Shown piece after piece: positions 11,545-38,792 of a DNA stretch of 64,000 nt. Numbering within the stretch: the first letter of the stretch is position 1; the number at the start of each line of letters is the position of its first letter. The stretch lies in assembly GCA_001189075.1 (NCBI GenBank), contig LFCN01000006.1, positions 237,219-301,218 on the forward strand, written 5' to 3'. The DNA comes from Parcubacteria bacterium C7867-004. GTDB taxonomy: Bacteria; Patescibacteriota; Minisyncoccia; Phycocordibacterales; Phycocordibacteraceae. The notes below the pieces were generated by a model. That model was not told the origin of the DNA. It did no database searches and worked only from the letters and a program-made list of their open reading frames with translations. The position numbers and the translations under genes were made by a program.

Positions 11545-11592
11545 GTACGGGAGCTCTATACTTAGGGAATACCCCTAAGTACTATTCATTCC

Positions 11593-11901: not shown

Positions 11902-11906
11902 GCTCG

Positions 11907-12617: not shown

Positions 12618-12620
12618 CTT

Positions 12621-13733: not shown

Positions 13734-13756
13734 TAGCCAGGATGTAGAATGGAGCT

Positions 13757-14374: not shown

Positions 14375-14397
14375 GGTGCCCTGGTATCCTTATCCCT

Positions 14398-14874: not shown

Positions 14875-15350
14875 GCGAATTTCAGCATCTTGGCCCGGAT
14901 CTCCTGCAGGGATTTCTGGTAACGAGTATCGCTCGGATTCCTCTTATAGTTGATCTGACGAATCGCTACAGTATAGGATTTCCCGACCTTGCCGCGCATC
15001 TCGACACGGATGCGGAATGTGGACGTGAGACCTTTAGGAATCTTCGCGTAGACAATCGTTCCGAGCGTTATCTGCGCTATCCCGTCTCCTTCGCATGAGA
15101 TAGCGGTGGTCGAGATGAGACCCGGGACGGTCCCTTCGATTTGGTATACGAAACCGGTCGGTTTCTTTCCGGACGCTATTGAGACCGGGATATAGATATC
15201 TTCCGTAGGAGCGGTTATATCTAGTATGAACGAGAACTTGCCGATAACCGGGTCCGGTCCGTCAGGAACATAGGTCCTTCTGAAGCTTCGTTTTATATCT
15301 TGAACGTCGACGAGCAGGTTTGCGCTCGGTGTTGTCACCGGATTGCTCAT
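14871..15350 (-). CDS. hypothetical protein
   Basis: 159-aa ORF with a 4-nt overlap onto the convergent neighbour. No motifs. Confidence 0.45.
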   Translation of the reverse strand: MSNPVTTPSANLLVDVQDIKRSFRRTYVPDGPDPVIGKFSFILDITAPTEDIYIPVSIASGKKPTGFVYQIEGTVPGLISTTAISCEGDGIAQITLGTIVYAKIPKGLTSTFRIRVEMRGKVGKSYTVAIRQINYKRNPSDTRYQKSLQEIRAKMLKFA

Positions 15351-15464
15351 AGGTGGTGCAGGTACTCGTAATAGGAAAAATATAACAAGACAAGATGCCG
15401 GAAACCTCTCTTTTCCCCGTACGCCGCATTTGCAATTCAGTTCAATGGCGCTACTATCCGCATC

Positions 15465-16382: not shown

Positions 16383-16389
16383 TAATAAG

Positions 16390-16435
16390 AACAAATGAAA
16401 CGGCCCGCATTGCGGGCCGTTTCATTTGTTCTATA
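16390..16435. terminator. bidirectional intrinsic terminator
   Basis: GAACAAATGAAACGGCCCGCattGCGGGCCGTTTCATTTGTTC long perfect hairpin between convergent genes. Confidence 0.7.
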
Positions 16436-19400
16436 GCTCCTTGTATCGCTCGCGAACGTCTTTGCCTGGCCAGCGGTGATAGAGGACCGGTATGAGCACC
16501 AGGGTGAGCACCATGGAGAACGCGAGACCGAACATGATCGCGAAGGCGAGCGGGCCCCATATCGCCGAGGCGAAGGAGAGAGGGATCATACCGACAACGG
16601 TAACAACCGTAGTAAGAACGATAGGGCGGAAGCGCGAGCTTGCCGCTGCTACAACCACGTCGGTCAGCGACTGATCGGGATTCTGGCGACCGATGCGCGC
16701 TACCGAGTCCATGAGGATGATCGCGTGGTTTATGATCACGCCGGCTAGCGCGATGACGCCGAGCATCGAGGTAAGCGAGAGTGGGGAACCGGTGAGCATG
16801 AGGCCGATGAACACGCCGATGAGCGAGAACGGGATGATGGAAAGGAGGTAGAGGGAATGGCGGAACGAGTTGAACTCAAGCACGAGGATGGCGAGCATGA
16901 GCGCCGCGCCTCCGACGAGCGCGAGGATAAGCTCAAGGAATGACTTGTTAACGTCCTCGCTTTCGCCGCCCTGCTTCACCACAACGCCCTCTGGAAGCTG
17001 GATGTTTTTCATCTGCTTCTGGAACTCGTTCGTGATCTGAATAGGGTTCCCGCCCTTAGCCGCTTCTGCGGAAAGGGTAGCGATACGCTCGCCGTCCTCG
17101 TGACGGATAACGGTATTTGCAGGCTCGTATGAAATAGTCGCGATCGAGCTCAGCGGCACGGGGCCGTTGATGCCGTTCACGGTCAGGCTGCGAACCGCGT
17201 CGATGGTGGTCTCGTTGGTCTCAGACGGATCACGGTACCCGGGGTTGAGATCGAGCTTGGTGCGGACTTCGATATCGTCATCTCCGGTGCGGATGCTGGT
17301 GGCTTCGGTACCGTAAAGCGCAGTACGAAGCAGATCGGCAACCGCAAGCGTCGAGACGCCGAGCTCGCTCGCTTTGGCGGTGTCGAGATTAACGACGAAC
17401 TCGGCGCTGTCGTCCTTGGTCGAGGTGGTGATGTTGGTGGTACCGGGAATGTCGGCGAGGATGCGTTCCGCCTGAGCAACCGCAGTCGCGAGCGCGCCCA
17501 GGTCGTCTCCCGAGAAGGTGGTCGAGACCGCAGCTCCTGACGGAGGACCGCCTTCAGGTTCGGAGACGGTTACGCGCGCGGACGTAATGGATCCCAGCTC
17601 CGTGCGCAGGTCCTCGACGATTTCGGCGCTGGTCTGCTTGCGCTTCTCCTTCAGGTTCACGCTTATGTTCGCAGCGCGGGATCCGCCGAGACCACTCGCA
17701 GCGAACGAGCTTCCGGCACCTACTTCCGTTACGAATGATGCGATGCGGTCGTCCGCGTACAGAAGCTCCTCGACTTCGCGGACGGCAAGGTCGGTCTCCG
17801 AGAGGGAGGTTCCCTGCGGCTTCTCTATCTCGACGTACACGAGATCGACGTCCTCTCCGGGGAAGAACACTACTTTAACTAAGCCGAGAGCCGGCAGCGT
17901 GAGGACAACGAAGAGAAGAACCGTGATGCCGATAAGGAAGCGGCTCTCTTTTTTGCGGTCGCCGAGAATACCGCGCAGGAACTTCTCGTACCATGCCTTA
18001 GCGCGCTCGTTGTATTCCTCCTGACGTATCTCGAGAGGGGAGAGCGTCGGACGGATGATATACATCGAGAAGAGCGGTACGAATCCGAGCGCGACGAAGA
18101 TGCTCGCGAGCAGCACGAAGATAACGGTGAACGGGATCGACGCGAGGAACTGGCCTACGATACCCGAGAGGAAGAAGAGCGGGACGAATACCGCAATCGT
18201 AGTGAAGGTTCCGGCAAATAGTGGCCACGCATATTCCTTGATGGCGGTCACGGCAGCCTTCTTCTTGTCGCCGTATTCCACGAAGCGGGTGTGGATCGCT
18301 TCCACGATAACGATGCCGGAGTCCACGAGGATACCGATCGCGAGGATCAACGAGAAGAGCGATATGAAGTTGATGGTGTTGCCCGACGCTTGTATGCCGA
18401 TGAACGCGATAAGGAACGAGAGCGGTATGGAAATAGCGGCGGCGATGGATTCGCGCCAGCCGAGCGTGAGGAAGAGCATCAGCATCACGAGCGCCACGGT
18501 CTCAAGTCCCGTGCGGGTGAGCTCGGTGAGGTCATGATTCACGTCCTTGGGCGCGTCGTAGGAGATGACGATCTTGGTTCCGGCGAGCGTCGTAGCCTTG
18601 AGCTCCTCGAGCTTTTCTTTTACCTGGTTTCCGGTGGTGACGACGTTTCCGCCGCGGCTCTTGAATACGCTGATGCCGAGCGCTGGAGCTGAGGGTGCGC
18701 CCTCTACCGAAACTCTGGAATATGTGCGCGCGTCGGCCAGTCCGTTCACCACCTTCGCGACGTCGCGAATGTGAAGGGGCGTGCCGCCGGGGCCGGCAAG
18801 CGCGATGCTTCCCACGCGATCAGGATCAGAGAGACCTGCCTCGAGACGGACTGCGTAGGAGATGTCGTTTACCGTTATCGAACCGAGAGGGGAGGCGAGT
18901 CCCGAGGAGCGAATGGCGTTCGTGACGTCGGAGAGCGAAAGGTTGTACTGACGGAGCTTCGATTGCTCGACGATAACGCTCACTTCGCGCTCGCGGACGC
19001 CCGAGAGCGCTACCTCGGACACGCCCGGAATGCGTTCGAGTTCGTCCTTTACGGTCTCTCCGAGCGCGGTTAGTTCAGCAGGCGCAAGCTCGCCCGAGAT
19101 AGACGCGATGATGATCGGCTGGTCGGCGAAGTTAACGTCGGATACGGACGGATCTTCGGCTTCTCCGGGAAGCTCGGGGCGCACCTTCTCTACCTCGTCT
19201 TTGAGGAGCTGTATGGACTTATCGATATCAGCGGACGCATTGAACTCGACGGTCACGTTCGATACGCCGTCGCCTGAGGTCGAGGTTACTTTCGAGACGT
19301 TCTCGATGCCGAGCACGCGATCCTCGACCTTATCGGTTATGAGTCGCTCAACGTCCTCGCTCGAGGCGCCGGGAAGCACCGTCGTTACGATGCCGACCGG

Positions 19401-19529
19401 TATCTGGATCTCCGGAGATGACTCCTTCGGGATAGTTGCCGCAGCGACAACGCCGGCCGCGATAAGCACTACCGCGAGCAGTATCGTGAAGTGGTGCTTA
19501 TTGATGAAGAAGGTCCAGAACTTAGTCAT
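16431..19529 (-). CDS. RND family efflux transporter permease (AcrB/HAE1-like)
   Basis: 1032 aa with 12 TM helices and two large periplasmic loops. Typical RND length and architecture. Confidence 0.9.
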   Translation of the reverse strand: MTKFWTFFINKHHFTILLAVVLIAAGVVAAATIPKESSPEIQIPVGIVTTVLPGASSEDVERLITDKVEDRVLGIENVSKVTSTSGDGVSNVTVEFNASADIDKSIQLLKDEVEKVRPELPGEAEDPSVSDVNFADQPIIIASISGELAPAELTALGETVKDELERIPGVSEVALSGVREREVSVIVEQSKLRQYNLSLSDVTNAIRSSGLASPLGSITVNDISYAVRLEAGLSDPDRVGSIALAGPGGTPLHIRDVAKVVNGLADARTYSRVSVEGAPSAPALGISVFKSRGGNVVTTGNQVKEKLEELKATTLAGTKIVISYDAPKDVNHDLTELTRTGLETVALVMLMLFLTLGWRESIAAAISIPLSFLIAFIGIQASGNTINFISLFSLILAIGILVDSGIVIVEAIHTRFVEYGDKKKAAVTAIKEYAWPLFAGTFTTIAVFVPLFFLSGIVGQFLASIPFTVIFVLLASIFVALGFVPLFSMYIIRPTLSPLEIRQEEYNERAKAWYEKFLRGILGDRKKESRFLIGITVLLFVVLTLPALGLVKVVFFPGEDVDLVYVEIEKPQGTSLSETDLAVREVEELLYADDRIASFVTEVGAGSSFAASGLGGSRAANISVNLKEKRKQTSAEIVEDLRTELGSITSARVTVSEPEGGPPSGAAVSTTFSGDDLGALATAVAQAERILADIPGTTNITTSTKDDSAEFVVNLDTAKASELGVSTLAVADLLRTALYGTEATSIRTGDDDIEVRTKLDLNPGYRDPSETNETTIDAVRSLTVNGINGPVPLSSIATISYEPANTVIRHEDGERIATLSAEAAKGGNPIQITNEFQKQMKNIQLPEGVVVKQGGESEDVNKSFLELILALVGGAALMLAILVLEFNSFRHSLYLLSIIPFSLIGVFIGLMLTGSPLSLTSMLGVIALAGVIINHAIILMDSVARIGRQNPDQSLTDVVVAAASSRFRPIVLTTVVTVVGMIPLSFASAIWGPLAFAIMFGLAFSMVLTLVLIPVLYHRWPGKDVRERYKEL

Positions 19530-19537
19530 GTAGCGAA

Positions 19538-21076
19538 TTAGCGCACCGAGGCTGCGGACTGCGTCTTAACGAGCTCGCCTTCGGAGAGGCCGCGTGCATC
19601 GGTGACGATCCTGAGATCGCCGGGAAGCTCGGAGAGTATCTCGATACGGTCGCCGCGTACTTCGCCTACTTCGACGGGGCGCGCGACGAGACGGGAATCA
19701 GCATCGACCGTAAAGATGATGCGATCACCGGCGCGGAGCTTCACGGAAGCGAGTGGAAGGAGCGCAGGACCTGCGGCCGCAACAACGGTTGTCTGGGGAG
19801 CGAGGTCAGGAAGCGCGATATGCACGGACTGGCCGTTCACGAGATCGTTCGCACCCGTTACGGCGACGTGCACTTCGATTTGCTTGTTGGTGGGATCGAG
19901 CGCTGGAGCGATCGAGGTGATGATGCCGTCACTCTTGCCTTCGACGGTAACCTTGGTGCCCGCAGCAAGGAGATCACGGTCGCCTTCAGAGACGTATGCG
20001 ACGATCTCGAGCGCGCCGTTCTGAGCTACGGTAGCGACGTGCATGAGGTTGGTGACGTAATCGCCGACGCGTATCGGAAGGAAGTTCACCTGTCCTGCGA
20101 TAGGCGCACGGATAACCGTCTTCTCGAGGTTCGCTTGTGCGGCACGAAGCGATCCCAGCGCCTGCTTCACGGACGCGTCAGCGCTCGCGGACGCACCCAC
20201 GCTTCCTGCGCGGTATCCGCTGCGGGCGGCCTGTAGCGACGCGATCACTCCGTCGACGCTCGCGCGTGCAGCGACGAGTGCCGCTGACTGCGTTTCGGTA
20301 GTGCGGGAGTCGCGGCCGTTAGCGGCAACTGCGAGGCGGGCCATGAACGTCGCTACCTGGCGCGCGATCGATTCAGCTTCCTCAAGAAGCGCGAGCGGGT
20401 CACGGGAACCGGCACTTCCAAGCTTCGCGGCATACGCTTCCATGAGTCCGTCGATTCGCTCGCGTTCGCGGGAAAGATTGTCCGCTTCTGCTGCATTGCT
20501 CGCGAGGATAAGGAGATCGGGACCGACCGGCTTCGGGTCGCCGAAGAATTGGTCTACCTGCGTCTCGAGCGCGGTATCGAGGGTGGTGTAGGCGGCGCGA
20601 TATTCCGCAACTGCTTCATCCTTCGTGTCGGGAAGCGACTGCGCGGAGCGGGCGGCGACCGCTGCGTCGTAGGCGCCTTCGGCCTGAAGCACGCTCGCAC
20701 GCTCGGCTGCGTTCTCGAGGCTCGCGATTATGGAACCGGCTGCGACGAATCCGCCGAGCTGGACGTTAACGGCACGGACGGTACCACCGTTCTGGGCGAG
20801 GAGATCCGCCTCGGTGACGCTGCGCACGGTGCCGATGAGATCCACGACACTTCCGGTACCGGAGAGTTCTCCAATGGACGCGAGGGTGACGGTGCGGCTC
20901 TGGTCAGCAGTCTCTTCAGGCTTCGCCGACGTGAGAAGGAAGATTAGTCCGGCGATAGCTGCGGCGAGCACGAGTGCCATAGCGATGCGCTGCCACAGAG
21001 GACGGGCGACATACCACTTCCAAGAGTGGCGTGCTCGAGCGGGTAGAGTATTGAAAAATGCGCGTACGCGCTTCAT
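19538..21076 (-). CDS. efflux RND periplasmic adaptor (HlyD/MFP family)
   Basis: N-terminal TM, coiled-coil hairpin and a β-barrel region (TVIRAPIAGQV). Immediately upstream of the RND gene. Confidence 0.8.
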   Translation of the reverse strand: MKRVRAFFNTLPARARHSWKWYVARPLWQRIAMALVLAAAIAGLIFLLTSAKPEETADQSRTVTLASIGELSGTGSVVDLIGTVRSVTEADLLAQNGGTVRAVNVQLGGFVAAGSIIASLENAAERASVLQAEGAYDAAVAARSAQSLPDTKDEAVAEYRAAYTTLDTALETQVDQFFGDPKPVGPDLLILASNAAEADNLSRERERIDGLMEAYAAKLGSAGSRDPLALLEEAESIARQVATFMARLAVAANGRDSRTTETQSAALVAARASVDGVIASLQAARSGYRAGSVGASASADASVKQALGSLRAAQANLEKTVIRAPIAGQVNFLPIRVGDYVTNLMHVATVAQNGALEIVAYVSEGDRDLLAAGTKVTVEGKSDGIITSIAPALDPTNKQIEVHVAVTGANDLVNGQSVHIALPDLAPQTTVVAAAGPALLPLASVKLRAGDRIIFTVDADSRLVARPVEVGEVRGDRIEILSELPGDLRIVTDARGLSEGELVKTQSAASVR

Positions 21077-21186
21077 GAGGACGGCTGGTTTCATATGTAT
21101 TTACTACACTATTTTATCAGTAATGTCAATTTGTAGGCCGTCTCAGAAGGAAGAAGATGCGGAGGCGAAGTGGTATCCTTATATCC

Positions 21187-22095: not shown

Positions 22096-23769
22096 ATGAC
22101 CCAGAACGAGGCGCTCGCCATTTTGAAGACTGGAGCGAATGTATTCCTTACCGGAGAGCCCGGAAGCGGGAAGACGCATACCGTGAACGCGTACATTGCG
22201 TGGCTACGTTCGCATGGTATTGATCCCGCTATAACCGCGTCTACCGGCATCGCCGCGACGCACGTGGGCGGCATGACGCTCCATGCCTGGGCAGGCATCG
22301 GCATTGCGGAACGCATGACGCCGCAGCTCCTCGATGCGATCGCGAGCAAGGAGCATGTCGCGAAGCGTCTTCAGCGCGCGAAGGTGCTTATCATCGATGA
22401 GGTATCGATGCTTTCTGCGAATGTGCTCTCGATGGTAGACGAAGTTGCGCGTGAAGTGCGGCACGAGCCCCATGAAGCGTTCGGCGGACTGCAGGTAGTG
22501 TTTGTCGGCGATTTCTTCCAGCTCCCGCCAGTCTCGCGCACGGAAACCTCGTTCGCGTTCGAATCCCCGGCGTGGGCAAATGCTCGGCCGATGATCTGTT
22601 ACTTGTCCGAACAGCATCGCCAGGACGACGAGCGGTTGCTCGACGTCCTCTCAGCGATACGCGGCGGCACCTGGGACCATACGCATGTTTCCATCATCAC
22701 CGCTCGGGAAGCCGAATTCGAGGTTATCGAGGACGGCATCCCGCAGTTATTCACGCATAACGCGGATGTCGACCGGATGAACGAGGAACGGCTGAGCCGG
22801 CTTTCGGGCAAAGAGCACGTGTATCTCATGCAAAGTGCAGGAACGCCTGCGCTTACCGAAGCGCTCAAGCGGGGCTGCCTCTCTCCGGAGAGGCTTGTAC
22901 TCAAGGAAGGTGCTGTCGTCATGGCGACGAAGAACAATCCGATCGCGGGGTATTCGAACGGCACGCTTGGTACCGTCATCGATTTCGAATCAGGTACTGA
23001 TTTTCCGATCATAGAAACGCGCGACGGTCGCGAGATAACCGTGCAGCCTGTCGACTGGGCAGTCGAAGAGAATGCAAAGGTCCGCGCTAAGCTCACGCAG
23101 TTTCCGCTCAGGCTCGCGTGGGCGATAACGGTGCACAAGAGTCAGGGACAGAGTCTTGATGCAGCTGCGATCGATCTCTCTCGTGCATTCGAGCACGGAC
23201 AGGGGTATGTTGCACTTTCTCGCGTGCGCAGGCTCGACGGCCTCTTCTTGCTCGGATGGAGCGAGATGGCGCTCTCGGTGCATCCGCGCGTATCCGCACT
23301 TGATGTGGAATTCCGCGAAGCGTCAGCCGCAGCTGCTGAAGCGTTCGCGGAGCTTGAAGAGAGTGGGGAGCGGAAGCAGATGGAGAAGAATTTCATACTG
23401 GCCTCGGGAGGTACGCTCGAATCAAAAGAAGGAACGGCTGGGGCGATTGTTCCGAAAGCAACCACCTACGACCTGACGCTCGCGCTCATCGAAGCCGGGA
23501 AGACGTTAGTTGAGATCGCGAAGGAACGCTCGCTCACAATCGGCACGATCGCGGACCATGCCGACAAACTGGTATCGGCAGGACGCGTTACTGCCTCGAC
23601 CCTTGAGGAGATCATTCCAGACCGCCTAAAGAAGGCGCTCCCGAAGATATTTGAAGCCTTCGAGAAGAAGGGGGCCGAAAAACTTACTCCGGCGTATTCT
23701 ACTCTTAAAGGAAAGTATTCCTATGACGAGTTGAAGCTGGCGCGCGTGCTGTTCCTGCGGCGTGCGTAG
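22096..23769 (+). CDS. PIF1/RecD-like ATP-dependent DNA helicase with C-terminal HTH
   Basis: Walker A GEPGSGKT. Walker B LIIDEVSM. Helicase motif VHKSQGQSLD. Confidence 0.8.
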   Translation: MTQNEALAILKTGANVFLTGEPGSGKTHTVNAYIAWLRSHGIDPAITASTGIAATHVGGMTLHAWAGIGIAERMTPQLLDAIASKEHVAKRLQRAKVLIIDEVSMLSANVLSMVDEVAREVRHEPHEAFGGLQVVFVGDFFQLPPVSRTETSFAFESPAWANARPMICYLSEQHRQDDERLLDVLSAIRGGTWDHTHVSIITAREAEFEVIEDGIPQLFTHNADVDRMNEERLSRLSGKEHVYLMQSAGTPALTEALKRGCLSPERLVLKEGAVVMATKNNPIAGYSNGTLGTVIDFESGTDFPIIETRDGREITVQPVDWAVEENAKVRAKLTQFPLRLAWAITVHKSQGQSLDAAAIDLSRAFEHGQGYVALSRVRRLDGLFLLGWSEMALSVHPRVSALDVEFREASAAAAEAFAELEESGERKQMEKNFILASGGTLESKEGTAGAIVPKATTYDLTLALIEAGKTLVEIAKERSLTIGTIADHADKLVSAGRVTASTLEEIIPDRLKKALPKIFEAFEKKGAEKLTPAYSTLKGKYSYDELKLARVLFLRRA

Positions 23770-28880: not shown

Positions 28881-28979
28881 CAACCCATCATGATGGTGGA
28901 CGGACAACAGCTCGTGTTGAGGCGATGCCTCGATGCAGATCACCTTTCCACCATCAGCAAATCTCAAGGAGACACCCTC

Positions 28980-30491
28980 ATGCGCATGCCGTTCAAGCGT
29001 CAGACCGCAACGACTGCCACGACCGACGAGAACGGGCTTGAGACTCTCAATCCCGCGCTCCTTCTGGAGGGCGAGATTGAGACCGAGATCGGGCGGGCGC
29101 ATGCCCTCGCGGTCACGTTCAAGCCCGGAGAAGAACTCCAACCCTTCCTCAGACAGATCATCGGGCGCGTCGCTCGCATGCACGTGGACTACAACAAGCG
29201 TGCGACGAGCACCCTGCAGGCTATCGCCGGCAGGTTCGTGGTCCTCAAGACCCAACTCGACCAGCCGGTCGAAACCGAGGCAGCGAAGTCTCGCGCGGAA
29301 CTCACCAAAAGGATCGAGAACCACGTGAGGGATCGCGTTCGTCGGAAACTGAAGATCGCCAGCTCCCTCAAGGGACAACGTGAAGACGAGCGCAAGCTCG
29401 CCATCGGCATCTTCGGTGATCCGGAACTCTCGGCTCAAAAGCCGAGCCGGCTGAAAGACGTGGCCGCCTTCCTCATCAGCCTCTTCGTTGGAGCGGGTCT
29501 CGACCTGTCCCTCAACCTGGAGTTGATGAGCTTCGGCTCCACCTTCGCCGTCGCGATCTCCATGTCGCTGCTGATCTCGCTGATCGGTGCGACCTTGGCG
29601 CATTTCGCCTCCCGGTCCATCAGGACCTGGAAGTGCCATCGCCAAGCCCTCGCCGCCTTCAGCCGGGAATTCCCGGATGGGAAGGACTTCAAGACTGGGA
29701 AAGAGGTCTTCGTGTTGCCGCTGCCGCCCGGCTTCGCGCCGATGGCAAGCGTCACGCACGGCGGCCTCATCCTGCTCGCTGCCGCTCTTGTCTGGGTTCG
29801 CCTGGACATCATGCGGGACCAGCCCGGCGCGAATGCCATCGGCCTCTTCGCGACCTTCCTGGTGATCGGCACCTGGTTCGTCCAGTACCTCTTTGAAGCG
29901 TTCATGTCGGGCATCGAACACGCCCGGCTCCGTGAGCTTCATGAGATGCAGGAGAACCTGGGCGGTCTCGAAGAGGAACACCTTTCCCTCAGCGAGATCG
30001 ACGGCACCGACGAGTTCATGGTCAAGATCGGCCAAGAGGTCTCGGACTACGAAGAAGCCGCCGTGACCCGCGCGAAAGCGCTGGCAGAGACGGCGGAAAA
30101 GCTCACTCGCGAGCGTAACGAGTTCGATCGTTTGTTGGCGGAGTTCCAGGCATCTCATGCCTGGTTCACCGCCGCTGCGACGGATGTGGCCGAGGTTTTC
30201 CTGGCCGACGTCGCGGGCTCCAAGACTGCTCCGAGTGCGCTTAAGCCCAACGATCTCAGTACGATGATCGTGGGCGTGCTCCCGGAACCCGTCAAGGCTG
30301 TGGCTGATTTCGACAAGATCTTCGCCTTCGATGTCCCGCAAGACGGGGCGTCGGAGGAACCGGTCGACGTCGAGACTATCGTCCTCAGCTTCGCGGACGC
30401 TTTCGAGGCTCGTGAACGTTCGCGACAAGAAAAAGAAGCTGAGCGGGCTCGAGTCGAAGAGGCGCAAGCCTTCCTCGCCAAGACCAACTGA
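28980..30491 (+). CDS. polytopic membrane protein with N- and C-terminal cytoplasmic coiled-coil domains (unknown family)
   Basis: ~503 aa. ~165-aa soluble N-terminus, 3-4 central TM helices, ~190-aa acidic coiled-coil C-terminus. Very GC-rich codons. Confidence 0.55.
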   Translation: MRMPFKRQTATTATTDENGLETLNPALLLEGEIETEIGRAHALAVTFKPGEELQPFLRQIIGRVARMHVDYNKRATSTLQAIAGRFVVLKTQLDQPVETEAAKSRAELTKRIENHVRDRVRRKLKIASSLKGQREDERKLAIGIFGDPELSAQKPSRLKDVAAFLISLFVGAGLDLSLNLELMSFGSTFAVAISMSLLISLIGATLAHFASRSIRTWKCHRQALAAFSREFPDGKDFKTGKEVFVLPLPPGFAPMASVTHGGLILLAAALVWVRLDIMRDQPGANAIGLFATFLVIGTWFVQYLFEAFMSGIEHARLRELHEMQENLGGLEEEHLSLSEIDGTDEFMVKIGQEVSDYEEAAVTRAKALAETAEKLTRERNEFDRLLAEFQASHAWFTAAATDVAEVFLADVAGSKTAPSALKPNDLSTMIVGVLPEPVKAVADFDKIFAFDVPQDGASEEPVDVETIVLSFADAFEARERSRQEKEAERARVEEAQAFLAKTN

Positions 30492-30520
30492 GCTACAACA
30501 CCTTCAGGAAAGTTACTGAC

Positions 30521-31606
30521 ATGAAACGCCAAGCTGTCACGCCCACGCCGAAGGCCGGGCAAAAGTCCGCATCGCGCGGATTCAGTATCTGGTGGATCGT
30601 CGGCGCGGTGGGAGCGTTCATCGCCCTCATCGCCCTGATCTCCGTCTTCGTCTTCGGGCGATCGGAGTTCATGCCGCAGACGGACACCTACACCTTCGCG
30701 CGCGACCTGTCCATCGACAACGGCCAGAAGATCGATCCCGCCACGTTCAAGGACACGACGGGAAAGATCACGCTCGCCGAGGTCTTCACGGACAACAAGG
30801 CGCTGAGCTACTACGGCGCCGACGACAAGGGTCAAGACGGAGTGGGCCTCACGGTCCGCTTCGTCACGACGGTGGGCGGCAGGCCGGTCCCTGGTGGGGA
30901 CAAGGCCTTCAGCCTTCCGGGCTGGAAGAGCCGAAACGAGAACGGGGTCAACAACCCCGTTCGTCGCGCGTTCGCGAAAGAGAAGCAGGGCGAGTTCCAC
31001 TCGCTCGTCGGCTCCTTCGCCGCGTCCGTTTCTCTCGATCGTCTCGCAGTCGTGGTGGTCGACACCACGAGCGGGGTGAGCGAGGACATGGCCCGCCGGG
31101 TCAACACCACGGTCAACGGGATCTGCAAGGATCCCGATACTGTGGTCCGGCTGCACCTCATCTCGAGCGAGTCCTACCAGGGCGGCGCTCGCGAATGGCG
31201 GTGTCGGATCCTGTCTTCGGGCGAGATCGACGCGGTGATCGCAAGCCAAGGGGCCAACGCCTCCGGCGTGCTCAAGAGCCTCCGGGCTATCACCGAGTCG
31301 GTCTCGAACGAGGTCGCGGAGAACCCGCGGTCGCTGGTCACGGTCCATGTCTTCACCGACGGGATCGAGAACTACGACGGCTGGGACTTCTACAAGGCCC
31401 AGCGCCCGATGATCGAAGACCAGTCCAACTGGTCCAAGGTCGATGAGCGGTTCGGTCTCGCCAGCTTCAAGCTGCAAGGGGTGAGGTTCGTCCTCCACCC
31501 CACGCCGCAACCGCCGGAGCATCAGGCGCTGATGGGGCATGCACTCGCGTACCTGGCCGACAGGCTGGAGAACGCGGGCGCGAAGGTCCAAAAGCTCGAC
31601 TTCTAG
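30521..31606 (+). CDS. membrane-anchored protein with vWA-like domain
   Basis: N-terminal TM. VVVVDTTSGVS (MIDAS-like) and VHVFTDGIEN (vWA TDG motif). 30 nt downstream of the previous gene. Confidence 0.5.
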   Translation: MKRQAVTPTPKAGQKSASRGFSIWWIVGAVGAFIALIALISVFVFGRSEFMPQTDTYTFARDLSIDNGQKIDPATFKDTTGKITLAEVFTDNKALSYYGADDKGQDGVGLTVRFVTTVGGRPVPGGDKAFSLPGWKSRNENGVNNPVRRAFAKEKQGEFHSLVGSFAASVSLDRLAVVVVDTTSGVSEDMARRVNTTVNGICKDPDTVVRLHLISSESYQGGAREWRCRILSSGEIDAVIASQGANASGVLKSLRAITESVSNEVAENPRSLVTVHVFTDGIENYDGWDFYKAQRPMIEDQSNWSKVDERFGLASFKLQGVRFVLHPTPQPPEHQALMGHALAYLADRLENAGAKVQKLDF

Positions 31607-31641
31607 TCGGGCCAACGACGGTACTACCCTCTATTGTACTT

Positions 31642-31684
31642 GCGCCCCCTGGACCACAACGGTTCCGGGGGCGTTTTCTTTTAT
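31642..31684 (+). terminator. intrinsic terminator
   Basis: GCGCCCCCTGGaccacaacggttCCGGGGGCG, then TTTTCTTTT. Confidence 0.6.
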
Positions 31685-31720
31685 ACAGCCGTTGAGTATG
31701 CCTTTCGGTATACTGGATAG

Positions 31721-32179
31721 ATGCAAACGGATTCTCCTCACGGTACGGGATTCGATCCGGATTTCCGGCCGGATCTGACGCCCGCGCAAATGCTCGCGCT
31801 CGGCGTGTTCGGCGGCGCGTATTTTGATAACGAATCGACAGACGAATATCCGAAGGAATGGTTCAAGGATGCAAAGATCTCGGATCATGGCCCCGATAAG
31901 AGCCTGAACTATTTCGGTGTCGATGCGTCGCAGTCGAGAGAGGAGTGGATACGCAAAGGATGGATACGCGATCAGGATCCGCTCGGGTGGTTCCAGTGGT
32001 ACTGCCGGTATTATCTCGGTCGCCGCTCAGAGGATGATGCGCGTCAGATCAAGCGCTGGCGTCAGATGGTCCGTCATGCGGCGCAGGTGAAGTACGGATG
32101 TCGCGCAGGAGACGCAACCTGCAGGCCCAAGCAGCGTCAGGCGCTGTTACACTGGGCCTATGACTCACGCAGGATCTGA
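31721..32179 (+). CDS. hypothetical conserved protein
   Basis: 152 aa, Trp-rich (WFQWYCRYYLGRR). No TM helices. Family not recognised. Confidence 0.45.
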   Translation: MQTDSPHGTGFDPDFRPDLTPAQMLALGVFGGAYFDNESTDEYPKEWFKDAKISDHGPDKSLNYFGVDASQSREEWIRKGWIRDQDPLGWFQWYCRYYLGRRSEDDARQIKRWRQMVRHAAQVKYGCRAGDATCRPKQRQALLHWAYDSRRI

Positions 32180-32804
32180 TCGATTCAAGTACGGCTGGCT
32201 CACGCTCACGCTCACGCTCACGCTCAGTCTCGTATCGTCAGCAGCGTTCCTCGCGCTCGCGCTTATCGAATACTACGCCCACGATCTTCCGCAAGCGGTA
32301 GATTCCTTAGTCGCTACTATGATCGGTCCCTTACGTACGGTCGGACTCATAGAGGTATTCCTCACCATAACTACGCTCGGGAACACGCTCTCGATAGTGC
32401 TCGTCGCGCTTGCTTCCGCATTCTTCCTGCGTAAGAGCCCGCACGTTGTCGAACGTCTCGCGTTCGTGCTCATCGGAAGCACGCTTGTCGTAAACATCGT
32501 GAAGATCGCGATATCCCGCGTACGACCGGAAACACTCATATGGTTCGATCCGCTGCTTACGTATTCCTTTCCGAGCGGGCACGCGGCAGCAAGCATGGCG
32601 CTGTACGGGTCCTTGGCGATCATATCCGCACGCTTGCTGAGGGGCTGGAAACGCACACTCGCTGTTATCCTCTGCGTCCTCATCATCCTCGGGGTAGGCA
32701 CAAGCCGGGTGGTGCTCAGCGCACATTTCTTCACGGATGTAATCGGTGGATACCTGCTTGGTATCGCGTTCGTAGCCTTGGCGTTCTCGTTTAGGAGCCG
32801 CTAG
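32160..32804 (+). CDS. PAP2 superfamily phosphatase
   Basis: KIAISRVRP (KxxxxxxRP), FPSGHAAAS (PSGH) and SRVVLSAHFFTDVIGG (SRxxxxxHxxxD). Confidence 0.8.
   Translation: MTHAGSDRFKYGWLTLTLTLTLSLVSSAAFLALALIEYYAHDLPQAVDSLVATMIGPLRTVGLIEVFLTITTLGNTLSIVLVALASAFFLRKSPHVVERLAFVLIGSTLVVNIVKIAISRVRPETLIWFDPLLTYSFPSGHAAASMALYGSLAIISARLLRGWKRTLAVILCVLIILGVGTSRVVLSAHFFTDVIGGYLLGIAFVALAFSFRSR
32199..32227 (+). repeat. (CTCACG)n hexanucleotide tandem repeat, ~4.7 units
   Basis: ctcacgctcacgctcacgctcacgctcag encodes the (LT)n run LTLTLTLTL near the PAP2 N-terminus. Confidence 0.8.
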
Positions 32805-33462
32805 CGGGACCCTGCTTCTGGGCTTCTTCGGCTTTCTTGTCTTGCCGATGGTTCCAGTATTCGAATGCGAGCGGAAGGAATGAGAGTACGATGATCAATC
32901 CGATGATAGGAAGGAGGTAGTGCTCGCTTTGTGGAAAGGATCTTCCGAGGAAGTACCCGAGTGTCGTCACGCCCGTTCCCCAGAGCAATGCGCCGATGAC
33001 GTTGTAGGTGATGAAGGTGCGGTACTGCATCGAGCCGATGCCGGCGAGTATCGGGACGAATGAGCGCACGGCCGGTATGAAGCGGGCAAGGACAACCGCA
33101 CGCACGCCATACTTCTCATAGAACTCCTCGGTGCGCTTCACATGCTTCTCCTTGATGAAGAAGGAGTCGGGTCGTCCGAGGTATTTCTTGCCAAGCACGC
33201 TTCCGAGCCAGTACCCAGCGCTGTCGCCGAGTATCGCTGCAATGGTAACGACCACCACGAGCGGCACGATAGGGAACCATCCTTGGGACGCGAGGAAGCC
33301 GGCGGTAAACAGGAGGCTCTCTCCGGGAAAGACGAATCCGAACGGCATGCCACTCTCGCAAAAGACGATAATGAAAAGGCCTACTAATCCCGCGCTCTGG
33401 ACCAGGTGCGGCAGTGAGATACCGATAGCATCAAGCATTTCATCCCAGTATACTGCCCCCAT
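32791..33462 (-). CDS. DedA/VTT (SNARE-associated) family membrane protein
   Basis: FCESGMPFGFVFPGESLLFTAGFLA and ...VVLARFIP... DedA signatures. Start may instead be MLDAIG at 33438. Confidence 0.8.
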   Translation of the reverse strand: MGAVYWDEMLDAIGISLPHLVQSAGLVGLFIIVFCESGMPFGFVFPGESLLFTAGFLASQGWFPIVPLVVVVTIAAILGDSAGYWLGSVLGKKYLGRPDSFFIKEKHVKRTEEFYEKYGVRAVVLARFIPAVRSFVPILAGIGSMQYRTFITYNVIGALLWGTGVTTLGYFLGRSFPQSEHYLLPIIGLIIVLSFLPLAFEYWNHRQDKKAEEAQKQGPASGS

Positions 33463-33871
33463 GAACGAACGGGAATTCGAGCAGATCGCGATAGAGGAGT
33501 GGAAGCGGGTGCCGGACCGATTTAAGGGGAAGATACAGAATCTCGCACTCCTTATCGAAGACGAGCCAGACCAGGAGGTGCGAGAACTGGAAGCGCTCGA
33601 AGAGGGCGAGACGCTGCTCGGTCTCTATCGCGGCGTCCCGCTCACCGAACGGGGAAGCGAGTACGGCATCGGCATGACGCTGCCCGATACGATAACGCTG
33701 TACCGGCTTCCAATTATAGAGGAGGCGGAGGAGATGGATCGCGCGTTCAGGGATGCGGTGCGCATTGTTGTCCGCGAGACCATATGGCACGAAGTAGGGC
33801 ACTACTTCGGTCATGGGGAAGAATCGATCAATGAGCGGGAGGATGATGGGACCAATCGGTTCGAGTCCTAA
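33461..33871 (+). CDS. zincin-like metallopeptidase family protein (DUF1025-like)
   Basis: HExxH in IWHEVGHYFGH. ~136 aa. Confidence 0.6.
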   Translation: MNEREFEQIAIEEWKRVPDRFKGKIQNLALLIEDEPDQEVRELEALEEGETLLGLYRGVPLTERGSEYGIGMTLPDTITLYRLPIIEEAEEMDRAFRDAVRIVVRETIWHEVGHYFGHGEESINEREDDGTNRFES

Positions 33872-33991
33872 TCTCCCAGCTTGGCACAAGGTGACGCCTT
33901 GACAGCTCCAATCGCGGTCGCGTTGCGAATTTAGCATGTCGGTACATAATTCGAGCGAGCCCGCAGGGGCGGTTACGTCGGGCTACTCACT

Positions 33992-36289
33992 ATGATTTCT
34001 AAGATAAATCGCGTCAGAAAACTCGGACTCGTCTTCGCTGACTTCTCATGGTCAGCGGTAGTCCCCGCGTTTCGAGCCTTCAATCTGGTCTATGGCTGGA
34101 ACGGCTGCGGAAAAACGACGCTCACCCGCCTGTTCGACATGATCGCGCGCGGCGACGCTGGCGAGGTGGAATACGAAGTTGAAGATGTAAGCGGGGCCGC
34201 TTTCAGGTCAGCAGATCAATTCCCCACGCCGATACGCGTCTTCAATCAGGACTACGTCCAGAGCAATGTCCGAGTCCTGGAGTCGTCAGCGAACACAATC
34301 TCCGTACTGTTGGGCGCAGAGAACAAGGAACTCGCGACCCAGATTGAAGCTGACGAGCGCCTCCTGAACGGCTTGCCAGGTGACGGCGACAAAATCGGGA
34401 AGGTTCGCGAACTGCGCGGGTACACCGAAAAGAAGATCCGCAAGGAAAAGGGTAACGACACCGCCTTCACCGACATCGCCAAGACCATCGGAGCGGCGAT
34501 TGTCGGTAGCGGCGCGGCATCTCGCACCTATCGGGCTCCGGATGCGAAGAAGGACTTCTCTAGCATAAAAGCGCCCGCGCTCCTCTCGGACGAGGAGCGG
34601 GAACGGCACATTCTGGCGCTCAAGCAGGAGATGCTGCCCGAGGTGGAGCCAGTCCAGGCCCCTTCCTTGGACTTTAACGGCAAAGAGGCCTCAGTCCTCG
34701 AGGTCCTCGCCGCGCTTTCCGACCGCGCGGCCGCGCTCTGCATCGAAACGGTCGAGAGCGAAACGGTCCGCAAGCTAATAGGGCATCCCGACATCGCAGC
34801 CTGGGTTGAGGCGGGCCTCCATCTTCACAACGAGCATTCGTCGAAGAGTTGTGAATTCTGCGGCAACGAAATCCCAAAGGACCGCTTGGCCCAGCTTGCG
34901 CGCCACTTCAGCGAGGCCGATCGACGCCTGAAGGCGGACGTTGAGGCTGTCGTGGTGCAGCTCCGCGACGTGCATCGCCTCCTTACGGCCGTTCCGGTGC
35001 CCGATGCTGCGCGCCTATACCGCGAGCTTCAGGCGGACTTCGCCGAGAAGCGGTTGCTGGTTGAGGATGCCCGAACCAACCTGCTGGCACAGGTAACGGC
35101 GGTCGGGAAGGCGCTTCAAGAAAAGAAGTTGCGCACGACAGAAGCCGTCGAGCTAGGCGCAGGGGTGGACGTGAGGCCGCTCGCCGATGCGATCGAGACG
35201 GCGAACGCCGTGATCGAAATGCACAACCGGAGATCCAAGGACTTCATGGCGGTGCAGAGAAAGTCAGTGGGCGCGATCAAGGTGCACTATCTCAGCACCA
35301 TCTTCGACGATGTGACGCGGCGAAACGGCGAGATTGCAGAACTCGTAACAGGCCTCGCGCGGCGGTCCGTGGAGATCGATGAAATTCGCGCTCGGGTCGC
35401 AGCAGCACGGGCCAAGATCTCCTCCGCTCATGCGGCATGCGAGCAGATCAACGAAGGCCTTAGGACCTTCTTGGGGCGCGACGAGCTGCGCTTTGTACCT
35501 GAGGAGCGCGAAGCCGACGGGGACGGCCAGGCCGCGGGTACTGTGTTGGGTTATCGGATCATGCGGGGCGACGAGCCGGCGGTTTATCTCAGCGAAGGGG
35601 AGAAGACAGCACTCGGGTTCGTGTACTTCGTTGTGCACCTCAACGACGGTCAGTTCCCTAAGCGGGATGGAATCGTCGTTATCGATGACCCGATCTCAAG
35701 CCTCGACTCGAACTCTCTCTACCAAGCGTTCAGCTTCCTCAAGAATGCTGTGGCGGGTTGCCAGCAGGTCTTCGTGCTCACTCACAATTTTGACTTTCTC
35801 AAGCTCCTCCTGAATTGGCGTAAACGGGATGGAGGTGCCGGATACTACATGATCAAGAACCATATCGAAGCCGACGAACGACGTGCCTCGATTGTCGAAA
35901 TGGACAAGGAGCTTCGGCAGTACGAGAGCGAGTACCATTACCTGTTCAAGCGCCTGAAGGAGATGCGGACGGAGCAGGACGGCACAATCATGCGCGCCTA
36001 TCCGGTGCCGAACATCGCGCGCAAGGTTTGGGACACGTTCCTCACCTTCCAAGTTCCGAACGGCGAGAGTCAATATCAGAAGATGAAGTACCTCAAGACG
36101 CAGGACTATTCAGCCGAAAAGCTCGACGCCATATATAAGTTTACGAACGATCAGTCCCACATCACCGGTGCGGGCTTTGATCCCGCTCTGGTCCCTGAGA
36201 CACAGAAGGTTCTGGCCGAGTTGTTCGAGATGATGGAGCAGATCGCGCCCGAGCATTTCCGGATTCTCGACCGCGCTACGGCTGTCTAG
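33992..36289 (+). CDS. RloC/PrrC-like AAA_13 ATPase with zinc hook and anticodon-nuclease-like C-terminal domain
   Basis: Walker A GWNGCGKTT. Central coiled-coil with CEFC. Walker B/ABC-like VVIDDPISSLD. C-terminal IARKVWDTFLTF and NDQSH. Confidence 0.65.
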   Translation: MISKINRVRKLGLVFADFSWSAVVPAFRAFNLVYGWNGCGKTTLTRLFDMIARGDAGEVEYEVEDVSGAAFRSADQFPTPIRVFNQDYVQSNVRVLESSANTISVLLGAENKELATQIEADERLLNGLPGDGDKIGKVRELRGYTEKKIRKEKGNDTAFTDIAKTIGAAIVGSGAASRTYRAPDAKKDFSSIKAPALLSDEERERHILALKQEMLPEVEPVQAPSLDFNGKEASVLEVLAALSDRAAALCIETVESETVRKLIGHPDIAAWVEAGLHLHNEHSSKSCEFCGNEIPKDRLAQLARHFSEADRRLKADVEAVVVQLRDVHRLLTAVPVPDAARLYRELQADFAEKRLLVEDARTNLLAQVTAVGKALQEKKLRTTEAVELGAGVDVRPLADAIETANAVIEMHNRRSKDFMAVQRKSVGAIKVHYLSTIFDDVTRRNGEIAELVTGLARRSVEIDEIRARVAAARAKISSAHAACEQINEGLRTFLGRDELRFVPEEREADGDGQAAGTVLGYRIMRGDEPAVYLSEGEKTALGFVYFVVHLNDGQFPKRDGIVVIDDPISSLDSNSLYQAFSFLKNAVAGCQQVFVLTHNFDFLKLLLNWRKRDGGAGYYMIKNHIEADERRASIVEMDKELRQYESEYHYLFKRLKEMRTEQDGTIMRAYPVPNIARKVWDTFLTFQVPNGESQYQKMKYLKTQDYSAEKLDAIYKFTNDQSHITGAGFDPALVPETQKVLAELFEMMEQIAPEHFRILDRATAV

Positions 36290-36605: not shown

Positions 36606-36869
36606 CTAGACCGGCACCATGTCCACTTCTCCCATCGTAGACCTCACCGCATAGACGAGGCACTGGTCAGTGCAGGACTCGGGGTTGGCGGCGATGAACT
36701 CCTGCGCCTTTTCTATGGACGTGAAGGTTTCGAGCACACAGAGACCCATCACGATGTCGAGCAGCGGTGCATAGACCAGCCCATCGCCCATTCCCATTTT
36801 CGGGGCAATGCGGCACAGCCAGGGATTCAGGGACGCGGTCGCGTTCTTCTTGATACAGAACTTATCGCT
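36606..36869 (-). CDS. hypothetical small protein (cassette 1)
   Basis: ORF 36606..36884. MSDKFCIKK after a GGAGG RBS. Four Cys. No known motif. Confidence 0.4.
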   Translation of the reverse strand, partial: SDKFCIKKNATASLNPWLCRIAPKMGMGDGLVYAPLLDIVMGLCVLETFTSIEKAQEFIAANPESCTDQCLVYAVRSTMGEVDMVPV

Positions 36870-36936
36870 CATGTGAGCCTCCAAGGTGTCAGTCAGGGCG
36901 ACTATATCACCAATTCAAAGTTTGTCATTGCAAAAA

Positions 36937-36961
36937 GGTTCCAACGTCGTACCAAACTCCC
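36937..36961 (-). repeat. conserved 25-nt promoter-proximal element, copy 1
   Basis: + strand GGTTCCAACGTCGTACCAaACtCCC. Lies between the terminator of gene 37024..37860 and the -35 of gene 36606..36869. Confidence 0.7.
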
Positions 36962-37023
36962 AAACAAAAAAGATAGCCTCGCGCTATAAGAGCGCGAGGC
37001 CTAATCTATCTCGGGACTGGGAT

Positions 37024-37860
37024 CTAAGCGGCCGATGTCCGCAGACGGGGGCGAGGGGTGAACTGAAGCACCTTTCCATCCCCGAACTTGACTTCAGCTT
37101 CATCGCTCAGCGCGACCACCACCGGGGTGCTTTCCTCCGCCAGGGTTCGATTGAGATACTCCACCAGGCAGTTTAAGGCGTGGTTGAGGAAGCAGTGCTT
37201 CGTGGGATTCTCGACGAAGAGCGGGATACCGCTCGTCTGACTAAGAATCTCAAGAAATGCGTCCCTGCGCCGCTCCCAGTTCGTATCGGCTTCGGGATTG
37301 AGGACCACGAAGCTCGGGCTAATGCCCGCTCCAACCAGTCCCCAGAACACACCGGGATCTTCCTCTCCGACAGGAAGCCGGAGAATCGCCGGCGCCTGTT
37401 CGAATGGCCACCCCGAAGCTTGATGCGCCGGCTGTCCAACCTGCTCTCGTGGATAGAAGCCGAACGCGAGCGTGCCGCCCTGAATCAGGGTCGATTGGCC
37501 GTCGGCAGGAATGACGCAAACGCCGAGGTCAAACCCGAGGGTGCTGATGTCAGGATACCCCTCTTGAAGATCCTGAAGCAGGAGCCCCATCAGCAGCTGT
37601 GCGTTCGACGGGTTCTGCGACCGGAGCCGCTCGTACTCATCGCAGAACGCCTGGTATTCAGGCGCCGGGTTCGAGGCCCGGATCTCCTGCATATACAGAG
37701 CGTCATGGCTCAGAAGATCTTCGAAGGTGTAGATCGGGTGGCAACCCTCTCGCTCCGTCTCGAACAGACAGACGATGTGTTGCCGCCCGATGTTTCCGTT
37801 GATGATGTGGCAGACCTGCCGAGGATCATCGGATTCCAGCATTTCAATGCCAAACAACAT
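37024..37860 (-). CDS. hypothetical protein (cassette 2)
   Basis: 278 aa with its own promoter and terminator (GGCCTCGCGC...GCGCGAGGC, then a T-run). Confidence 0.5.
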   Translation of the reverse strand: MLFGIEMLESDDPRQVCHIINGNIGRQHIVCLFETEREGCHPIYTFEDLLSHDALYMQEIRASNPAPEYQAFCDEYERLRSQNPSNAQLLMGLLLQDLQEGYPDISTLGFDLGVCVIPADGQSTLIQGGTLAFGFYPREQVGQPAHQASGWPFEQAPAILRLPVGEEDPGVFWGLVGAGISPSFVVLNPEADTNWERRRDAFLEILSQTSGIPLFVENPTKHCFLNHALNCLVEYLNRTLAEESTPVVVALSDEAEVKFGDGKVLQFTPRPRLRTSAA

Positions 37861-37957
37861 ATTCGCCTCCAGGGCAGGTTGAACGTTCCTGGAGCTGAAT
37901 ATATAAGATTATTTATAAAAGTCAAAAATGTACTTAACTAAGGGAATTACTCAAAAA

Positions 37958-37982
37958 GGTTCCAACGTCGTACCAGACACCC
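37958..37982 (-). repeat. conserved 25-nt element, copy 2
   Basis: GGTTCCAACGTCGTACCAGACACCC. Confidence 0.8.
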
Positions 37983-38019
37983 AAAGAAAAAACGACGGTG
38001 GTGGCCGTCGCTCGTCTCA

Positions 38020-38406
38020 TCAGTGTTTGGGAACAATTTTGAGAGCATCTGCTTCCTTCAGATGCTTCAGGAAGTGCGACATGCCGTCGCGCATGTCTCT
38101 GGCCCAGAAGTCGGCGAAGAACACTTCCGCATCTGCGAGCAGGTCAGTGAAGTCATCGCCCTTGATCGTGGGGTTGGTGAGGTCGCCGCTCAGATCAACT
38201 CGCGTGACTGCCTGAGCCTCGACGAAGAGTCGCACCCCGCCGTTCCAGCTGTCTCGCTGAATTCGAACGGTCTCCTGCCCGTTGCGAGACAGGATGAGGT
38301 CCTGGATGCCGAGCCCCGGCTCATACACCCCTTCGTACAGACCTCGTGGGCTGTACATTACGCCCTGCTCCCTCGCCAGTTCCCGCACGTTGTCTTGATA
38401 GCCCAT
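38020..38406 (-). CDS. hypothetical protein (cassette 3)
   Basis: Start at MGYQDN after a GGGAGGTG RBS. The longer ORF to 38505 would run through repeat copy 3, so it is rejected. Confidence 0.5.
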   Translation of the reverse strand: MGYQDNVRELAREQGVMYSPRGLYEGVYEPGLGIQDLILSRNGQETVRIQRDSWNGGVRLFVEAQAVTRVDLSGDLTNPTIKGDDFTDLLADAEVFFADFWARDMRDGMSHFLKHLKEADALKIVPKH

Positions 38407-38453
38407 AAACACCTCCCTGGGGTCTGGACAGAACCTAGCATGGATTGCGTGAG

Positions 38454-38478
38454 GGTTCCAACGTCGTACCAGACACCC
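38454..38478 (-). repeat. conserved 25-nt element, copy 3
   Basis: GGTTCCAACGTCGTACCAGACACCC. Confidence 0.8.
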
Positions 38479-38537
38479 ACTATACAAAAGACCCGCCGAC
38501 AACATGCCAGCGGGCCCAGAAAACTATACTCGTGCGA

Positions 38538-38792
38538 CTAGGGGATCTTGTCCACCACCGCTTGAGCCTTGAGGAGCTGGTACACCATGAGCGGACCCAT
38601 GGCGAACGCGCCCCTCTCATTGTCGGACATGGGCGGGAGTTTGAGGAGCCACTCCGCCACATGAGCGGCGATGATGGGGTTCTCCTCAGTGACCTCCTTC
38701 AGCCAGTTGCCGACATCGGCACCGGCTCTGTCCCGGACCGACTCCATCACGGCGTCGGAGGTTGCTCGGGACACTACAGGAAGTTCGGTCAT
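38538..38792 (-). CDS. hypothetical protein (cassette 4)
   Basis: 84 aa. TTGACA...TATTAT promoter and a GGTG RBS. Confidence 0.45.
   Translation of the reverse strand: MTELPVVSRATSDAVMESVRDRAGADVGNWLKEVTEENPIIAAHVAEWLLKLPPMSDNERGAFAMGPLMVYQLLKAQAVVDKIP

Follow-up and report, generated by a model that had tools for sequence, protein, structure and literature searches.

The 64,000-nucleotide stretch of Parcubacteria bacterium C7867-004 analysed here (assembly GCA_001189075.1, contig LFCN01000006.1, positions 237,219 to 301,218 of the forward strand; hereafter the window) carries a stand-alone gene for an uncharacterised protein of the RloC family, an annotation that the gene already has in GenBank. 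An identical public protein bears the product name 'Translation-disabling ACNase RloC [Parcubacteria bacterium C7867-004]' (ACNase, anticodon nuclease) and many of the homologues bear the Joint Genome Institute (JGI) name 'wobble nucleotide-excising tRNase'. A second public assembly (L001; GCA_002398375.1, DGYM01000008.1) holds the identical protein with the same neighbouring genes, and public data apparently contain more than one assembly of this organism. A first-pass annotation, made from the letters of the window and without database searches, had singled out a Walker A motif, a CxxC motif within SKSCEFCG, a Walker B motif and a C-terminal NDQSH in the 765-residue open reading frame (ORF), and had proposed a stand-alone RloC/PrrC-like protein and candidate suicidal tRNA-cleaving module. 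All four motifs are present at the coordinates checked (Table 1), and they are not chance matches, as the Pfam model AAA_13 spans residues 18-746 of the protein and the key residues are invariant in 82 relatives.

Table 1. Features of the RloC-family gene and of its surroundings, in window coordinates
Feature	Position	Strand	Description
AcrB-type RND transporter and HlyD-family adaptor	16431-21094	-	full-length transporter, 1032 aa, E 8e-188
PIF1/RecD-like helicase	22096-23769	+	C-terminal HTH_40 domain
Hypothetical-gene block	28890-32179	+	533, 361 and 152 aa; without Pfam or PADLOC match
PAP2 gene	32160-32804	+	upstream neighbour
DedA/VTT gene	32791-33462	-	upstream neighbour
Zincin_1 gene	33461-33871	+	136-aa product; 120 nt upstream of the RloC-family gene, same strand
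Weak sigma-70-like promoter match	33923..33950	+	TTGCGA-16-CATAAT; in the 120 nt that separate Zincin_1 from the RloC-family gene, 42 nt before its ATG
RloC-family gene	33992..36289	+	765 aa plus stop, ATG start; Rad50-like ABC ATPase, coiled-coil/CxxC insert, C-terminal HEPN RNase domain
Walker A / P-loop	34094..34120	+	GWNGCGKTT, residues 35-43; K41 = K44 of Geobacillus kaustophilus RloC (GkaRloC)
Helical (coiled-coil-type) insert	34325..35473	+	residues ~112-494, ~380 residues; splits the ATPase head
Hook region	34826..34909	+	H279...C287-E-F-C290...H305-F306, near mid-insert; CxxC (within SKSCEFCG) at 34850-34861
ABC signature-like motif	35588..35605	+	LSEGEK, residues 533-538; S534 and E537 invariant in the 77-sequence alignment
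Walker B plus D-loop	35675..35707	+	VVIDDPISSLD, residues 562-572
H-loop / switch	35774..35788	+	VLTHN (H598); T597 and H598 invariant
C-terminal all-alpha HEPN-fold domain	35909..36286	+	residues ~640-765; predicted anticodon nuclease
First part of the catalytic triad	36020..36034	+	R677-K-V-W-D681; counterpart of Arg-X3-Glu, Asp for Glu
HEPN Rx6H-type motif	36137..36160	+	K716-F-T-N719-D-Q-S722-H723; Lys for Arg, Ser before the catalytic His
Hypothetical-gene block	36606-38792	-	88-278 aa; without Pfam or PADLOC match

The assignment to the family was made from profile searches and from two alignments, one of 77 sequences (A1) and an independent one of 82 species-level relatives at 23-63% identity. 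The N-terminus of the protein (MISKINRVRKLGLVF) agrees with the family consensus in the 77-sequence alignment, so that the start codon is correctly placed. The AAA_13 core named in the first-pass annotation was borne out by the Pfam search (PF13166: E 5e-122, 409.4 bits, the cut-off being 36), in which the match covers model positions 5-713 of 713. Among the PADLOC profiles the best match was to a PDC-S06 model, PDLC04894 (E 1.5e-229), which pairs protein residues 1-761 with profile positions 1-736 of 740, and 12 further PDC-S06 models also match; PDC-S06 appears to be the PADLOC label for AAA_13/RloC-like proteins. Other PADLOC matches were weak and partial, comprising LmuB (4e-13), AriA (1e-8), AbiLi (8e-5) and a PrrC model that aligns with residues 561-747 (E 1.6e-9). 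The Pfam match to SMC_N was weak and below threshold, and no NCBIfam model, repair families included, reached its cut-off. Eight positions are invariant in the 77-sequence alignment and again throughout the 82 relatives (K41, C287, C290, D565, D566, H598, R677 and H723), and these fall in the ATPase motifs, the CxxC and the C-terminal active site.

A full-length AlphaFold2 model, run with the family alignment (mean predicted local distance difference test score, pLDDT, 85.7), lays the protein out as a β/α head, long helices at about residues 112-494 and an all-α C-terminus. In this model the N-terminal two-thirds of the protein form a Rad50/SMC-like ATP-binding cassette (ABC) ATPase head that is split by the long helical insert, and the best Foldseek matches in the PDB were the heads, with coiled coils, of Rad50, cohesin, condensin and SMC proteins (E 1e-7 to 1e-4). 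Long helices of the insert, as delimited by DSSP, cover residues 137-170, 296-332, 344-380, 395-436 and 438-476. The ATPase motifs expected of an RloC protein (Walker A, LSEGEK, Walker B and H598) are all invariant or nearly so across the 77-82 relatives: G40, K41 and T42 of the P-loop do not vary in the 77-sequence alignment, where the same is true of D565, D566, P567, S569, S570 and D572 in the Walker B motif and D-loop, and K41 is kept in every member of the larger set that possesses the N-terminus. In the PDB, neither an RloC nor a PrrC structure turned up by sequence, profile or fold search, and the confident model may for that reason be a convenient starting point.

The CxxC that the first-pass annotation put forward as a Rad50/RloC-type hook consists of two invariant cysteines, C287 and C290, which lie near the midpoint of the 112-494 insert of the predicted Rad50/SMC-like head, as expected of the Rad50-like insert with a central CXXC of RloC proteins. 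Around them runs a longer conserved signature, W271-x3-G275-x3-H279-x7-C287-x-F-C290-x14-H305-F306 (residues 271-306, window 34802-34909), in which W271 and G275 are likewise invariant among the 82 sequences and the histidines are kept in 74/82 (H279) and 70/82 (H305). Judged by its residues, this signature could bind zinc within one molecule as a Cys2His2 site, as opposed to the intermolecular hook of the Rad50 type.

The last ~125 residues make up a domain of HEPN fold in which an R...(K/R)xxNxxSH site is conserved. The PrrC and RloC nuclease domains have been assigned to the HEPN superfamily (Anantharaman et al. 2013, PMC3710099), and the fold matches of the C-terminal domain, of which the lower-ranked include AbiA, Las1, the HEPN domain of sacsin and Cas13b, agree with that assignment; the domain is thus of the HEPN-fold RNase type expected in RloC. 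The published RloC nuclease signature is Arg-X3-Glu-X36-52-His, often with Ser before the His (Davidov & Kaufmann 2008, PMC2610378), and the stretch IARKVWDTF...NDQSH fits its spacing (x3 + x41) as R677-x3-D681-x41-S722-H723. The first-pass annotation's comparison with the R-x3-E...H motif of ACNases, with Asp at the acidic position, therefore stands, with Arg and His invariant, S722 kept in 81/82 relatives and N719, at the place of N352 of Escherichia coli PrrC (EcoPrrC), present and nearly invariant in the subclade. The replacement of Glu by Asp had been noticed in that annotation, and a second deviation, Lys716, had been missed. Lys716 lies seven residues before the catalytic His and corresponds to Arg349 of EcoPrrC, the tRNA-Lys anticodon nuclease. 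This is the Arg residue in the Rx6H motif of HEPN domains, and it has been reported as conserved in PrrC and RloC (PMC3025547). Both positions vary within the family. Position 681 is Glu in 68/82 relatives and Asp in 14/82, the two alternating among the closest homologues, and position 716 is Arg in 46/82 and Lys in 30/82, with Lys fixed among the relatives at or above 39% identity, where L017 is the single exception.

The best explanation of the gene, and a probable one, is that it encodes an RloC-type single-gene tRNA nuclease in which a HEPN domain is switched by DNA and ATP. The mechanism can be sketched from the published biochemistry of GkaRloC and EcoPrrC. By this analogy, a dimer would probably be kept silent through its zinc-binding hook, and the binding of DNA, ends especially, combined with the head's hydrolysis of ATP, would probably turn the HEPN RNase on. 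The RNase would then probably cut tRNA anticodon loops by metal-independent transesterification, leaving 2',3'-cyclic phosphate ends, and the resulting shutdown of translation would abort a phage infection or answer DNA damage, with the affected cell sacrificed or arrested. Such a module would consist of a single gene with no dedicated partner. At the level of sequence and predicted structure, the core proposal of the first-pass annotation, a stand-alone RloC/PrrC-like candidate for suicidal tRNA cleavage, passed every test run, and neither of the two findings that the annotation had named as refuting it came up.

Several points weigh against a tRNA nuclease of this type. The most direct is the active site itself, in which Asp681 and Lys716 take the places of Glu and Arg: in EcoPrrC R349, N352 and H356 are essential, and the equivalent substitutions, E324D and R349K, both abolish toxicity (PMC3025547, Table 1). 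When the C-terminal domain alone was compared with the PADLOC profiles, it matched PDC-S06 models only and the PrrC model was not reached, which indicates that the partial PrrC match of the whole protein comes mainly from its ATPase part. The confidence of the AlphaFold2 model is low around the hook (pLDDT 52-66), so a Rad50-type apex geometry and zinc binding at this place are putative. The likeness to GkaRloC and EcoPrrC is traced only indirectly, through published residue numbers and deposited names, and the immediate neighbourhood in the window is without defence or mobile-element genes. As regards the active site, we infer that Asp681 and Lys716 are tolerated in this protein, because both variants recur in several lineages while the surrounding site is strictly conserved.

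The same two substitutions are the starting point for two other readings of the domain. In the first, the architecture and the switch are as described, and the HEPN RNase departs from characterised RloC in its substrate or cleavage chemistry, perhaps acting on mRNA, rRNA or other tRNA sites. The fixation of Lys716 in the closer relatives and the alternation of Asp and Glu at position 681 speak for it, the HEPN class does include mRNases and rRNA-processing enzymes (PMC3710099), and a site bearing two changes that silence EcoPrrC cannot work exactly in the PrrC manner. It is nonetheless unlikely, as R677, N719, S722, H723 and the whole architecture are of the RloC family type, and as Lys and Arg, and Asp and Glu, interchange repeatedly across the family tree with the architecture otherwise unaltered, which points to neutral or compensated variation. 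In the second, still less probable, the HEPN domain would be dead or attenuated, leaving the protein only the role of a sensor that depends on ATP and DNA, or of an RNA binder. That the window protein bears both changes known to be null in EcoPrrC (PMC3025547) would suit such a loss, and non-catalytic HEPN domains exist, MtlR for example (PMC3710099). Against this, there is no variation at R677 and H723 and almost none at S722 and N719 in the subclade, and K716 is strongly conserved, the signature of a maintained site and not of decay; moreover, close homologues carrying Glu at 681 have an active-site region that is near-identical in other respects. A related idea sets the PDLC04894 subclade, to which the window protein belongs, apart as a functionally distinct RloC lineage, with Lys716 fixed, Asp681 tolerated and a possible Cys2His2 hook site; this is doubtful, and if it were true the substrate choice, chemistry or switching of the subclade would differ from the GkaRloC model.

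Beyond the protein itself, the surroundings of the gene were compared with those of its relatives by clustering the neighbours of 81 related loci, to which six further look-ups of homologue gene context were added. No partner gene recurs in the 81 loci besides type I restriction-modification (R-M) genes, and an hsd gene lies within 6 kb in 14/81 of them (about 17%), a frequency similar to the 8/72 reported for RloC in 2008 (PMC2610378). In nine loci (L019, L020, L022, L023, L027, L029, L030, L031 and L060) the order is hsdM-hsdS-X-hsdR, with the family gene at X, the layout known for prrC and rloC; Pfam confirms it for L019 (Nitrospirota, 44% identity; 2642-11422) and L022 (1928-11498). Most of the hsd-embedded relatives have the canonical Arg/Glu active-site residues. 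In the window, neither the called genes up to 10 kb away on each side of the gene nor the Pfam-scanned ORFs of at least 230 residues in the full 64 kb include an R-M (hsd) gene. The first-pass annotation had been right to report this absence and had taken it for an oddity; since hsd genes are the only ones that recur near the relatives, and do so in a minority of loci, standing alone without a linked R-M locus is the norm for the RloC family.

The neighbours named in the first-pass annotation (PAP2, DedA and a zincin) are where they had been placed. The called genes within 10 kb on either side encode BipA, a DEAD-box helicase, hypothetical proteins, PAP2, DedA, Zincin_1, YkuD, a cupin, TspO, a glycosyltransferase and CopC, the larger ORFs elsewhere in the window include a resistance-nodulation-division (RND) pump, a PIF1-type helicase, RNase J, a transporter and similar, and blocks of hypothetical genes flank the locus on both sides (Table 1). 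No integrase, R-M subunit or known defence protein is encoded among these called genes and larger ORFs. The RND transporter is full-length and accompanied by its adaptor, in the very small genome of a candidate phyla radiation (CPR) bacterium. The PIF1/RecD-like helicase has moderate PADLOC matches to type IV CRISPR RecD and to PDC-S68/PDC-M16A, which probably reflect generic helicase similarity. No tRNA gene (ARAGORN) and no Rfam family at its gathering threshold was found in the 64 kb. The promoter match in the gap before the gene comes from a consensus scan (9/12 positions) and is only suggestive, because the count of such sites does not exceed the shuffle expectation. A defence island or mobile element at this place was considered and rejected, the flanks having no integrase, R-M or tRNA genes and no PADLOC match beyond the generic helicase similarity. 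The description of the locus as a 'GC-rich accessory stretch' also had to be given up: the gene has a GC content of 58.8% (73% at third codon positions, GC3), equal to that of the housekeeping genes around it (BipA, 59.0%; RNase J, 59.7%), which leaves no compositional anomaly, and no defence-island signature is seen in its immediate neighbours. The gene sits among ordinary genes and was probably acquired horizontally.

The distribution of the family is patchy and extends to mobile DNA, with members on 229 plasmids, 157 of them conjugative; from phage genomes the family is essentially absent, partial ATPase matches being found there and no close homologue. The PDLC04894 subclade occurs in CPR/Patescibacteria and Alphaproteobacteria as well as in a small number of additional phyla. 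Among named relatives the nearest (62-63% identity) belong to the Alphaproteobacteria, one from Sphingosinicella ginsenosidimutans (L005) and one on a JGI metagenome contig (L091), and both lie in similar elements (genes ~8001-18300) with a large serine recombinase, a helix-turn-helix (HTH) protein and an upstream TrwB- or DUF87-type ATPase. The presence of these closest named relatives in recombinase-bearing elements suggests carriage by a mobile element and cross-phylum transfer of the RloC-family gene into CPR bacteria. Contexts of other relatives differ. A Methylocystis relative adjoins a type I R-M system plus an OLD-family nuclease, and a Nomurabacteria homologue stands alone among housekeeping genes. 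In Parcubacteria group bacterium LiPW_30 (L006, 52% identity) a 213-aa HEPN_AbiV gene (10329-10970) follows 19 nt downstream on the same strand, and the pair, inserted between mur and other housekeeping genes, may be a two-gene defence islet.

The gene contexts bear on whether the protein might be the ATPase subunit of a two-gene system, like AriA of PARIS, LmuB of Lamassu, AbiL or the SMC-like ATPases associated with retrons, with an effector encoded next door, for example by the Zincin_1 gene. The weak profile matches to LmuB, AriA and AbiLi and to AriA structures would fit such a role, as would the closeness of Zincin_1 on the same strand and the HEPN_AbiV gene that follows the one Parcubacteria homologue. 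Those profile matches do not reach beyond the ABC ATPase parts common to these proteins, PDC-S06 is matched 200 orders of magnitude more strongly, no separate effector partner is conserved, and a HEPN effector is already fused in cis, which together make the two-gene system very improbable. Zincin_1 itself was rejected as a partner, as it is absent from the neighbourhoods of the 81 relatives. Least credible is a housekeeping DNA-repair ATPase of the Rad50/SbcC/RecN type, to which the head and coiled coil and the sub-threshold SMC_N match bear some resemblance, given the patchy and partly mobile distribution, the lack of any NCBIfam repair model at its cut-off, a C-terminus that is not SMC/RecN-like, being a fused HEPN domain absent from Rad50/SbcC, and the absence of an Mre11/SbcD partner among the called genes near the gene.

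Beyond confirming an existing annotation, the analysis has little significance in itself. If the RloC-type tRNA nuclease reading is right, as the sequence comparisons suggest, a Parcubacteria genome of ~0.7 Mb would keep a 2.3-kb single-gene module for abortive infection or translation shutoff, and the alphaproteobacterial relatives on mobile elements, at up to 63% identity, would be a data point on the cross-phylum spread of defence genes into the genomes of episymbionts. The natural Lys/Asp variants could also help to show which of the PrrC/RloC catalytic residues are indispensable.

Among known systems, the closest counterpart of the window protein is RloC as represented by GkaRloC. In architecture and in most of its motifs the protein agrees with the definition of RloC. 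The two proteins are of a similar size class (~750-800 aa) and share the motifs of the ABC ATPase, a CxxC placed centrally in a helical insert and a C-terminal Arg-x3-acidic-x41-Ser-His inside the published spacing. By published residue numbers, K41, C290, D565, R677, D681 and H723 of the window protein are collinear, within 1-15 residues, with K44, C291, D572, R692, E696 and H737 of GkaRloC (R692, E696 and H737 from PMC2610378; K44, studied as the mutant K44N, and D572 from PMC3458546; the hook residue C291 from both). As with RloC genes at large, which usually stand alone and are sometimes inside type I R-M loci, the window gene stands alone, and its ribosome-binding site is non-obvious, as has been noted for rloC. 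It differs from GkaRloC in the Asp at the acidic position of the triad, in the Lys for Arg and in its host, a member of the CPR/Parcubacteria. The full-length match to PDC-S06 is likewise a match to a single-gene system, though PDC-S06 is only a computational class of phage-defence candidates, and no experimental validation of it was found in the literature, only census mentions.

With EcoPrrC, from the EcoprrI type Ic R-M locus, the window protein has in common the ABC motifs and a C-terminal HEPN-type R...E/D...N-x3-H, and its Walker B and D-loop (DDP[IV]SSLD) are almost identical to EcoPrrC 215-DDPVSSLDDNH-225 (PMC3025547). PrrC proteins are nevertheless of ~400 aa, have no coiled-coil/CxxC insert and are always found in a silencing hsd operon, whereas the window protein has 765 aa, a 380-aa insert and no hsd genes. 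The PrrC box that follows Walker A (YYNAFYEDLFYWDND-like; PMC3025547) is unlike the corresponding RVFNQDYVQSNVRVL of the window protein. Lacking a type Ic hsdM-hsdS-prrC-hsdR locus and a PrrC box, and having the large insert, the protein does not belong with PrrC. What it shares with Rad50/SbcC and the SMC ATPases is a predicted head from which helical arms emerge (Foldseek E 1e-7) and an insert bearing a CxxC; unlike Rad50/SbcC, the window protein has a much shorter insert, no adjacent Mre11/SbcD gene and a fused HEPN RNase, which set it outside that family, and the conserved W271, G275, H279 and H305 around its CxxC are not part of the Rad50 hook.

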